Shown: piece after piece, positions 19,531 through 59,215 of the stretch | How positions within the stretch are numbered: position 1 is the first letter of the stretch | Layout: every line of letters begins with the position of its first letter | Source: Escherichia coli | GTDB taxonomy: Bacteria > Pseudomonadota > Gammaproteobacteria > Enterobacterales > Enterobacteriaceae | Length of the DNA stretch: 64,000 bases | Assembly: GCF_003018255.1 (NCBI RefSeq) | Contig: NZ_CP027440.1 | Strand: one strand, 5' to 3' | The notes under the pieces: generated by a model | Databases searched by the model: none | Told to the model about the DNA's origin: nothing | The model's input: the letters and a program-made list of their open reading frames with translations, nothing else | Position numbers and translations under genes: made by a program

Positions 19531-19750
19531 AATGTCCTCAACTGACAGTCTTTTTATAGGGAATATTTACAGGTTTGTTACACTTATCGTGCCATAAAAT
19601 TGACCATCAAGGCAAAATATCCCGCCCCGTTAGACGTATTATTTTTCATTAAAAATGCTTAAGTATGCATTTCAATGCACCACGATAGTGCAACAAACCT
19701 GGCGTGCACCATGATGATCATTCCATCAGGTACAGTTTCCCTGCGACGTA

Positions 19751-20533
19751 TCAGTCACCGTAGACATTAAAGTCGAAATACTTTTTCGCCATCTTGTCGT
19801 AGGTACCGTCCTGACGCAGCTCGCCAAGCGCCTTATTAAACGCCGCCGTCAGTTCAGCATCATCTTTACGTAGCCCTACACCGGTACCGTCACCGAAGTA
19901 TTTTTTGTCTTTCACTGATGAGCCAGCAAAAGCGAACTCTTTACCGGCTGGTTGCTTGAGGAATCCTTCACTGGCAGCAACTTCATCTTGTAACGCAGCA
20001 TCCAGACGTCCTGCAGCCAGATCGGAATAAACCAAATCCTGGTTGGCATAGGCCACCACATCCACGCCTTTGCTACGCCAGGTCTCGTTAGCGTATGCTT
20101 CCTGGGTTGATCCCTGCAGCACACCCACATGTTTACCTTTCAGTGAATCCAGCGTTGGCTGAATCGGTGAACCTTTGGCGGCAATCAAACGAGAATCTGC
20201 GGCGTACAACTTGTCGGAGAAAGCAATCTCCTGCTGACGTTTATCGGTAATGGAGAGCGACGAAATAATGGCGTCGATTTTTTTCGCTTTTAGTGAGGGG
20301 ATCAGCGCGTCAAAGTCACTGGCAACCCAGGTACATTTCACCTGCATCCGTTTGCACATCTCGTTACCGAGATCGATATCAAAGCCAACAAAGTCACCTT
20401 TGGCATCTTTCGATGAGAACGGCGCATAGGTGGTATCGGTTCCGATACGTACCGTCTCCGGTAGCGCCGCATAGCTGGAAGCCGCTGCGGAGAGACCGAC
20501 TAACAAAGACAGAGCGAGAATCGACTTCTTCAT
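19751..20533 (-). CDS. argT: Lysine/arginine/ornithine-binding periplasmic protein
   Basis: 260-aa ORF with signal peptide. Confidence 0.95.
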
Positions 20534-20600
20534 ACATAACCCTCAAGTGAAAATGGCTTTTTTATGTTGTGTATTGTGTTGTGTGTTTGCAGGCTCTTTC

Positions 20601-20617
20601 ATGCAGGTCTTATGCCA
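20601..20617 (-). promoter_or_regulatory. Candidate sigma-54 (-24/-12) promoter for argT
   Basis: minus-strand tGGcataagacctGCat: GG and GC separated by 10 nt, ~70 nt upstream of argT start; argT is Ntr-regulated. Confidence 0.45.
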
Positions 20618-20798
20618 TCTTTACGACAACAGTAACATTCAACGTTAAATATGTTAATAAGACGTTGCATTATTGTCCTAAAGTTGAAGATAGCAGGTAT
20701 GGCGGTTGAATCGCAGCGTTTCGATTCATCGAAAGGAACAAAATGTCGAGGATTTGATCGCGGTTGCAAAATTGCCCTGAAACAGGGCAACAATGAGG

Positions 20799-21368
20799 TT
20801 ATGCGCCCTGCCAGCGGGCAAAGAGATCTTCAGGAAGGGTTATCGCAAACTGGTCAAGAACACGATTAACCGTCTGATTTATCACATCATCAAGGGATTG
20901 TGGGCGATGATAAAACGCCGGAACGGGAGGCATAATCACCGCACCGATTTCTGCCGCCTGAGTCATTAAACGCAGATGGCCTAAGTGCAGTGGCGTTTCA
21001 CGCACGCAGAGCACCAACGGGCGACGCTCTTTCAGCACCACATCTGCCGCACGGGTCAGTAAGCCATCAGTATAGCTATGGACAATGCCGGACAGGGTTT
21101 TGATTGAACAGGGTAAAATCACCATCCCCAACGTCTGGAAAGAACCGGAAGAAATGCTGGCAGCAATATCGCGCGCATCGTGTGTCACATCAGCTAACGC
21201 CTGCACTTCGCGCAGGGAAAAATCCGTTTCGAGGGATAAGGTCTGGCGCGCTGCCTGGCTCATTACCAGATGCGTTTCGATATCTGTGACATCGCGCAGA
21301 ACCTGTAATAAACGCACGCCATAAATCGCGCCGCTGGCACCGCTGATGCCTACAATGAGTCGTTTCAT
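20799..21368 (-). CDS. ubiX: Flavin prenyltransferase UbiX
   Basis: 189-aa ORF; MKRLIVGISGASGAIYG. Confidence 0.94.
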   Translation of the reverse strand: MKRLIVGISGASGAIYGVRLLQVLRDVTDIETHLVMSQAARQTLSLETDFSLREVQALADVTHDARDIAASISSGSFQTLGMVILPCSIKTLSGIVHSYTDGLLTRAADVVLKERRPLVLCVRETPLHLGHLRLMTQAAEIGAVIMPPVPAFYHRPQSLDDVINQTVNRVLDQFAITLPEDLFARWQGA

Positions 21369-26812: not shown

Positions 26813-27472
26813 TTATTTTGCGGCGCGTGCCGCAGCGCGTTTGTGGCGAATAAATTCGAAAACACCTGGCAATATTGAAACAAAAATAATGCCAACAATC
26901 ATCAGTTTAAGGTTGCTCTGAATGAAGGGGAGCGTTCCGAAGAAATAACCCGCGTAGGTAAAAATCAGTACCCATAGCAACGCGCCGATGACGTTAAAAG
27001 CGGCGAAATGACGATACGACATGTGGCCCATTCCCGCAACGAACGGCGCGAACGTTCTGACGATCGGCACAAAACGGGCGAGAATAATCGTTTTGCCGCC
27101 ATGTTTCTCATAAAACTGATGAGTCTTATCAAGATAACTGCGACGAAAGATTTTCGAATCCGGATTACTGAACAGTTTGTCACCAAATAACCGTCCAATG
27201 GTGTAGTTCACCGCGTCACCCACAATCGCGGCGATCAGCATCAGCACCACCATCATATGGACGTTGAGATCGTTGGTTTCCAGTGATGCCAACGCACCGG
27301 CAACAAACAGCAATGAATCACCCGGTAAAAACGGCGTTACCACCAGACCGGTTTCACAGAACAAAATTAAGAACAAAATGGCATAAACCCAGACGCCATA
27401 CTCCGCGACCAGTTCTGCCAGATGCACGTCAATGTGCAGGATAAAATCGATGAGGAAATAAATCAGGTCCAT
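26813..27472 (-). CDS. dedA: DedA-family inner membrane protein
   Basis: 219-aa ORF. Confidence 0.92.
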
Positions 27473-57967: not shown

Positions 57968-59215
57968 CTATATTGCTGAAGGTACAGGCGTTTCCATAAC
58001 TATTTGCTCGCGTTTTTTACTCAGGAAGAAAATGCCAAATAGCAACATCAGGCAGACAATACCCGAAATTGCGAAGAAAACTGTCTGGTAGCCTGCGTGG
58101 TCAAAGAGTATCCCAGTCGGCGTTGAAAGCAGCACAATCCCAAGCGAACTGGCAATTTGAAAACCAATCAGAAAGATCGTCGACGACAGGCGCTTATCAA
58201 AGTTTGCCACGCTGTATTTGAAGACGGATATGACACAAAGTGGAACCTCAATGGCATGTAACAGCTTCACTAATGAAATAATCCAGGGGTTAACGAACAG
58301 CGCGCAGGAAAGGATACGCAACGCCATAATCACAACACCGATAAGTAATGCATTTTTTGGCCCTACCCGATTCACAAAGAAAGGAATAATCGCCATGCAC
58401 AGCGCTTCGAGTACCACCTGGAATGAGTTGAGATAACCATACAGGCGCGTTCCTACATCGTGTGATTCGAATAAACCTGCATAAAAGACAGGAAAGAGTT
58501 GTTGATCAAAAATGTTATAGAAAGACCACGTCCCCACAATAAATATGACAAAAACCCAGAAGTTTCGATCCTTGAAAACTGCGATAAAATCCTCTTTTTT
58601 TACCCCTCCCGCATCCGCCGCTATGCACTGGTGATCCTTATCTTTAAAACGCATGTTGATCATCATAAATACAGCGCCAAATAGCGAGACCAACCAGAAG
58701 TTGATATGGGGACTGATACTAAAAAATATACCAGCAAAGAACGCGCCAATAGCATAGCCAAAAGATCCCCAGGCGCGCGCTGTTCCATATTCGAAATGAA
58801 AATTTCGCGCCATTTTTTCGGTGAAGCTGTCAAGCAAACCGCATCCCGCCAGATACCCCAGGCCAAAAAAGAGCGCCCCCAGAATTAGACCTACAGAAAA
58901 ATTGCTTTGCAGTAACGGTTCATAAACGTAAATCATAAACGGTCCGGTCAAGACCAGAATGAAACTCATACACCAGATGAGCGGTTTCTTCAGACCGAGT
59001 TTATCCTGAACGATGCCGTAGAACATCATAAATAGAATGCTGGTAAACTGGTTGACCGAATAAAGTGTACCTAATTCCGTCCCTGTTAATCCTAGATGTC
59101 CTTTCAGCCAAATAGCGTATAACGACCACCACAGCGACCAGGAAATAAAAAAGAGAAATGAGTAACTGGATGCAAAACGATAGTACGCATTTCTGAATGG
59201 AATATTCAGTGCCAT
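57968..59215 (-). CDS. cscB: Sucrose:H+ symporter (MFS)
   Basis: 415-aa ORF; MALNIPFRNAYYRFASSYSFLFF.. recognised as CscB. Confidence 0.93.
   Translation of the reverse strand: MALNIPFRNAYYRFASSYSFLFFISWSLWWSLYAIWLKGHLGLTGTELGTLYSVNQFTSILFMMFYGIVQDKLGLKKPLIWCMSFILVLTGPFMIYVYEPLLQSNFSVGLILGALFFGLGYLAGCGLLDSFTEKMARNFHFEYGTARAWGSFGYAIGAFFAGIFFSISPHINFWLVSLFGAVFMMINMRFKDKDHQCIAADAGGVKKEDFIAVFKDRNFWVFVIFIVGTWSFYNIFDQQLFPVFYAGLFESHDVGTRLYGYLNSFQVVLEALCMAIIPFFVNRVGPKNALLIGVVIMALRILSCALFVNPWIISLVKLLHAIEVPLCVISVFKYSVANFDKRLSSTIFLIGFQIASSLGIVLLSTPTGILFDHAGYQTVFFAISGIVCLMLLFGIFFLSKKREQIVMETPVPSAI

Follow-up and report, generated by a model that had tools for sequence, protein, structure and literature searches.

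The spacer between ubiX and argT carries the known nitrogen-regulated sigma-54 promoter argTp itself, not merely an argTp-like sequence. In a 64,000-nt stretch of Escherichia coli DNA (the window), the element almost certainly serves as the sigma-54 (RpoN) promoter of argT and is activated by NtrC under nitrogen limitation. Sigma-54 RNA polymerase would occupy its -24 GG and -12 GC elements at 20618..20602 as a closed complex. Low glutamine or nitrogen limitation would then yield phosphorylated NtrC, which would contact the polymerase by DNA looping and drive ATP-dependent promoter opening. Transcription from about 20591 would produce an mRNA with a 58-nt C/A-rich leader, which is also regulated by the small RNA GcvB. 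The promoter is already known in the literature and in databases for both E. coli and Salmonella and nothing about it is new, so it carries little weight as a discovery. Its interest is that a genuine sigma-54 promoter could be recognised from raw sequence by a first-stage reader. The features that make up the locus are as follows.

20602..20618, minus strand: sigma-54 core promoter argTp, ATGGCATAAGACCTGCA, assigned from sequence, PWM, published ChIP identity and conservation
20591, minus strand: predicted +1, placed by the convention of Bonocora et al., in which the start follows the motif centre (here 20610) by 19 bp; this leaves 58 nt to the gene
20534..20590, minus strand: argT 5' UTR, assigned from sequence and largely conserved in three genera
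19751..20533, minus strand: argT coding sequence, 260 aa, lysine/arginine/ornithine periplasmic binding protein, assigned from the ORF list and the RefSeq annotation of near-identical E. coli and of K-12
20640..20771, minus strand: conserved upstream region, about -50 to -180, assigned from a 28-sequence alignment and lying within an active 198-bp fragment
20772..20790, minus strand: perfect 8-3-8 palindrome TTGCCCTG-TTT-CAGGGCAA, then TTTTG, assigned from sequence; in full TTGCCCTGTTTCAGGGCAA
19676..19692, minus strand: best NtrC box of the window, TGCACTATCGTGGTGCA, in the argT-hisJ spacer, with one mismatch to TGCACC-N4-TGGTGCA and a perfect GCAnnAnnnTnnTGC core
19595..19579, minus strand: sigma-54-like element before hisJ, ATGGCACGATAAGTGTA, PWM score 12.9 bits

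The surrounding genes identify the locus. Gene order around argTp is folC-dedD-cvpA-purF-ubiX-argT-hisJ-hisQ-hisM-hisP, as in Escherichia coli, and the 701 bases around the site (20300-21000) were matched in 5,425 of 5,426 complete E. coli genomes, where the flanking genes are annotated as ubiX and argT. Only four of the 5,425 genomes are at least 99% identical over this interval and most fall at 95-99%, which marks the lineage as uncommon within E. coli. From -30 through the argT start codon the window and K-12 MG1655 do not differ; the K-12 motif lies at NC_000913.3 2427875..2427859. Across the spacer region 13 of 309 positions differ between the two, every one upstream of -30; these differences concentrate at about 20716-20727 and 20793-20797. 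The E. coli variants that we inspected differ at -31, -6, -5 and -2, and the 17-mer itself is invariant.

Every sigma-54 promoter feature testable from sequence is present in the core element. The minus strand at 20617..20601 reads TGGCATAAGACCTGCAT, which parses as TGGCAT-AAGAC-CTGCAT. Its GG lies at 20616-20615 (-24 element) and its GC at 20604-20603 (-12 element), bearing out the preliminary description, which had reported minus-strand GG and GC doublets at canonical spacing. The doublets are set one helical turn apart, as in the consensus TGGCAC-N5-TTGCW for sigma-54. Both hexamers agree with it at five of six positions, and the site is no more than a middling match: the sixth base of TGGCAC is T for C, and CTGCA replaces TTGCA. 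The looser pattern TGGCAY-N5-YTGCW is matched exactly. The element shares its strand with argT and sits at leader distance from that gene, within the 265 nt that separate ubiX from argT. The ORF list places argT at 19751..20533 on the minus strand with its ATG at 20533, and the GC therefore stands 70 nt upstream of the ATG, as the same description had estimated.

Sequence by itself is not decisive for argTp. The bare GG-N10-GC pattern occurs 637 times in the window against 616 +/- 25 expected from shuffles, which is chance level, and we discarded this count as uninformative evidence. The pattern TGGCAY-N5-YTGCW is seen twice where 0.5 occurrences are expected. For a finer measure we took the sigma-54 ChIP-seq motifs of Bonocora et al. 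2015 that are intergenic and sense-oriented, left argT out, and built a PWM from the remaining 41. argTp scores 14.6 bits and so resembles the experimentally bound sites, exceeding 10 of the 41 training sites (range 9.1-21.7, median 16.1). It ranks third over both strands of the window, with two sites scoring higher. A 64-kb random sequence from a first-order Markov model should contain about 1.5 sites of at least 14.6 bits, and it is because equally good sites arise by chance at this rate that the motif cannot decide the matter unaided. By arithmetic from the same expectation, the probability that a chance site this good falls in the right orientation within the 265-nt spacer is about 0.003. 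Context, conservation and published binding data settle the reality of argTp.

Three further strong PWM matches were seen in the window. One is TTGGCGCGTTCTTTGCT at 58733-58749 on the minus strand (16.3 bits). Another, TTGGCATTATTTTTGTT at 26879-26895 on the minus strand (15.9 bits), falls at the dedA 3' end, about 200 nt upstream of accD, and CTGGCACCTGATCTGCT at 965-981 on the plus strand (13.3 bits) lies inside alaA in sense orientation, both placements by colinearity with K-12. None of the three appears in the high-stringency E. coli sigma-54 ChIP-seq list, and they are therefore probably chance or weak intragenic sites.

The motif is conserved among related genomes, at the level of E. coli variants, species and genera alike. 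A search for the exact 18-mer turned up 27 species-representative genomes, all of them Escherichia, Salmonella or Citrobacter. In an alignment of 28 sequences the motif and several upstream blocks are fixed, while the 20 nt directly upstream and the ubiX 3' end vary; the 27-species set was conditioned on the exact 18-mer and is by itself no proof of motif conservation. We therefore turned to the unconditioned table S5 of Bonocora et al. (PMC4591121). There a PSSM score of at least 9.4 is recorded at the homologous position in 14 genera, reaching out to Serratia and Yersinia, and the motif is absent in Sodalis, Xenorhabdus, Photorhabdus, Proteus, Providencia, Vibrio and Pseudomonas.

Published experiments concern the identical sequence and thus cover those sigma-54 features that depend on experiment; sigma-54 binding, rpoN dependence, NtrC control and promoter activity are all taken from these papers. 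In MG1655, sigma-54 ChIP-seq peak OS22 contains the motif ATGGCATAAGACCTGCA upstream of b2310 argT, with a FAT (fold-above-threshold) of 12 and a predicted start 58 nt before argT (Bonocora et al. 2015, PMC4591121). Its PSSM score of 9.46 lies in the lower third among bound sites, and its EcoCyc status in 2015 was "predicted", not confirmed. In Salmonella, the STM2355 argT site TGGCATAAGACCTGCATG, the same 18-mer, was positive by ChIP-chip, and argT showed a wild-type/delta-rpoN ratio of 3.5 with a constitutive activator (Samuels et al. 2013, PMC3844500). Citing Ames and Nikaido 1985, that study places argT among four operons whose sigma-54 dependence had already been shown by experiment, with NtrC as the activator. 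In vitro, RpoN holoenzyme gave a gSELEX peak in the ubiX-argT spacer of 61% without NtrC and 55% with NtrC (Shimada et al. 2021, PMC8743547).

Evidence for the activator and for promoter output comes from further studies. NtrC ChIP-seq in nitrogen-starved cells lists argT with a weak 5.4-fold signal, a peak that the authors added by eye after their peak caller had missed argT (Brown et al. 2014, PMC4066584). A cloned "argTp" fragment gave the highest GFP signal among the sigma-54 promoters screened by Ma et al. 2020 (PMC7045595), who did not report the rpoN or NtrC dependence of the construct. The primers of that study delimit 20789..20592, a 198-bp fragment that spans -198 to -1 if +1 is 20591. 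At review level, argT is stated to have a sigma-54 promoter activated by NtrC; argT goes unmentioned in Zhao 2010. The preliminary description had proposed a sigma-54 promoter of argT under nitrogen (NtrC) control. The first part is upheld by the identity of the 17/18-mer with the published ChIP sites of E. coli and Salmonella, and the second is supported by the place of argT in the known sigma-54/NtrC operon class of Salmonella and by the weak NtrC ChIP-seq signal. Beyond its native setting, argTp is now also used in metabolic engineering.

Two readings would deny the motif all or most of its role in argT expression, and both are improbable. That it is a functionless chance resemblance is scarcely credible. 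The chance frequency of GG-N10-GC and the expected number of equally high PWM scores per window speak for such a resemblance, but published ChIP and conservation data contradict it: the site is bound in vivo and in vitro (ChIP-seq, ChIP-chip and gSELEX), is identical in three genera amid variable flanks and conserved in 14, and stands at the correct position and orientation before a nitrogen-regulated gene. A subtler reading, in which the motif binds sigma-54 holoenzyme and contributes little while most argT mRNA stems from cvpA-purF-ubiX read-through or from an unrecognised sigma-70 promoter, is slightly more plausible and still very improbable. In its favour, the T run behind the ubiX hairpin is short and the hairpin does not pass a standard terminator scan, and many of the sites that sigma-54 binds in E. 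coli do not act as productive promoters (PMC4591121). In the rich medium LB, RIL-seq also recovered abundant argT-GcvB chimeras, a hint that argT mRNA is present under those conditions. Against this reading, a scan of 20400-20900 found no sigma-70-like promoter in the ubiX-argT spacer, and an overlapping sigma-70 promoter at argTp is therefore unsupported. The 3.5-fold rpoN dependence of Salmonella argT (PMC3844500), the strength of the isolated argTp fragment (PMC7045595) and the conservation of the motif across 14 genera likewise argue for a productive sigma-54 promoter.

Transcription from argTp is predicted to begin at 20591, about 2427849 in K-12 NC_000913.3. Counted from this start, the GC has its C at -12 and the GG occupies -25/-24, and a start about 12 nt past the GC agrees with the conventions of the cited papers; we infer the exact point from them. 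The cloned fragment of Ma et al. 2020 ends at 20592, adjoining the predicted +1. Within the 5' UTR, a Shine-Dalgarno sequence TGAGGG lies at about 20545..20540 and a C/A-rich tract, CAAACACACAACACAATACACAACA, at about 20589..20565 on the minus strand. In E. albertii a 12-nt deletion falls within this tract.

The leader also brings a second layer of regulation. In Salmonella, argT has been verified as a GcvB target recognised via the R1 seed, and the conserved interaction has also been detected in E. coli; the leader thus adds post-transcriptional control. The C/A tract would suit the G/U-rich R1 region and is presumably the pairing site.

Upstream of the core, the spacer holds a conserved region and a palindrome whose roles are less sharply defined. 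The region at 20640..20771 contains the conserved blocks GAAACGCTGCG.TTCA.CC; ACCTGCTATCTTCAA; and CAGGACAATA.TGCAACGT.TTATTAACA.ATTTAACGT. It presumably houses activator or architectural sites, a role that is presumed because no NtrC or IHF consensus was found within it. At 20640-20667 on the minus strand, an inverted repeat CAACGT-N16-ACGTTG surrounds an AT-rich core (TCTTATTAACATATTTA), with its centre at about -62 of argTp; the repeat falls within a block conserved across three genera.

The palindrome TTGCCCTGTTTCAGGGCAA begins 8 nt past the ubiX stop codon, with its centre at about -190. Folding prediction gives a hairpin of 9 bp, made of the eight palindrome pairs and one flanking G-U pair, and the palindrome hardly varies across Escherichia, Salmonella and Citrobacter. 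The ubiX 3' end and the 20-35 nt from the stop codon to the palindrome vary, with an indel. The 5' end of the cloned argTp fragment falls at the palindrome. In the terminator scan of 20400-20900 the hairpin misses the T-run rule because it is followed by only 4 T. The palindrome is probably the terminator of cvpA-purF-ubiX. It possibly doubles as a weak NtrC-like, activator or other protein-binding site: as TGCCCTGTTTCAGGGCA at -190 it has the NtrC-like outline TGC-N11-GCA, but 5 of 13 positions mismatch the NtrC consensus.

The position of the NtrC enhancer is less certain than the promoter. No match to the NtrC box TGCACC-N4-TGGTGCA with up to three mismatches occurs in 20534-20798, and no match to the core GCAnnAnnnTnnTGC with up to one mismatch occurs in the ubiX-argT spacer. 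An IHF consensus scan of the K-12 locus likewise found no site in this spacer. The lack of a recognisable upstream NtrC box makes us less sure where the enhancer lies; it does not weaken the case for the promoter. The best box of the window, TGCACTATCGTGGTGCA, is conserved and lies about 0.9 kb downstream of argTp, inside the strong 23.7-fold 'hisJQMP' NtrC ChIP-seq peak at 2424941-2425021 (Brown et al. 2014, PMC4066584). A second inverted repeat, TG(T/C)ACC...GGTGCA, is found just upstream of this box.

A second sigma-54-like element lies near this box. It stands 49 nt before the hisJ ATG (TGGCACGATAAGTGTA, 19594..19579), and the NtrC box sits at about -116. Its -12 element is the canonical CTGCA in Citrobacter, CCGCA in Salmonella and GTGTA in Escherichia. 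hisJ is absent from the tables and the supplement text available from the E. coli sigma-54 ChIP-seq study (PMC4591121), and hisJQMP is described as controlled by sigma-70 and ArgR during exponential growth.

These positions make a shared downstream enhancer conceivable. argTp would then lack an enhancer of its own, NtrC bound at 19692..19676 would loop back from downstream and also serve the sigma-54-like hisJ promoter, and the palindrome would be a terminator only. NtrC enhancers act from a distance and from either side, as at glnAp2. The box at 19676-19692 is the only good one in the window, the ubiX-argT spacer holds no NtrC-like site at up to three mismatches, and the ChIP-seq signal is 23.7-fold at the argT-hisJ box against 5.4-fold (by eye) at argT. 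We nevertheless consider this arrangement unlikely. The fragment 20789..20592, which excludes the downstream box, gave the strongest GFP signal, though Ma et al. did not report whether the construct depends on rpoN and NtrC. Strong conservation of the 200 nt upstream also points to local sites. The title of a 1988 paper by Schmitz implies the discovery of local sites essential for nitrogen regulation, which would also count against a shared downstream enhancer. Which NtrC site acts as the enhancer of argTp is our inference, and the place where NtrC binds would sharpen the regulatory picture of a classic nitrogen-scavenging operon and of a promoter used in engineering. Were the downstream arrangement true, it would offer a natural case of one enhancer for two tandem sigma-54 promoters, one of them served from downstream.

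Comparison with characterised promoters places argTp among its relatives. argTp of E. coli K-12 (b2310) and argTr of Salmonella Typhimurium (STM2355) are the same element as that in the window, with identical 17/18-mer, 5' UTR and gene context, and the K-12 core shows no difference from the window. glnAp2, the textbook NtrC-activated sigma-54 promoter, shares with argTp the -24 GG and -12 GC core, sigma-54 ChIP-seq binding and NtrC activation under nitrogen limitation. At glnAp2, strong consensus NtrC boxes lie at about -110 and -140 and the NtrC ChIP signal reaches 71-fold, whereas the argTp spacer has no recognisable NtrC box and its NtrC ChIP signal is 5.4-fold. The hisJ (dhuA) upstream region resembles argTp in carrying a sigma-54-like element and in belonging to the same Ntr regulon; it differs in its consensus NtrC box at about -116 and in an Escherichia -12 element that reads GT, not GC.
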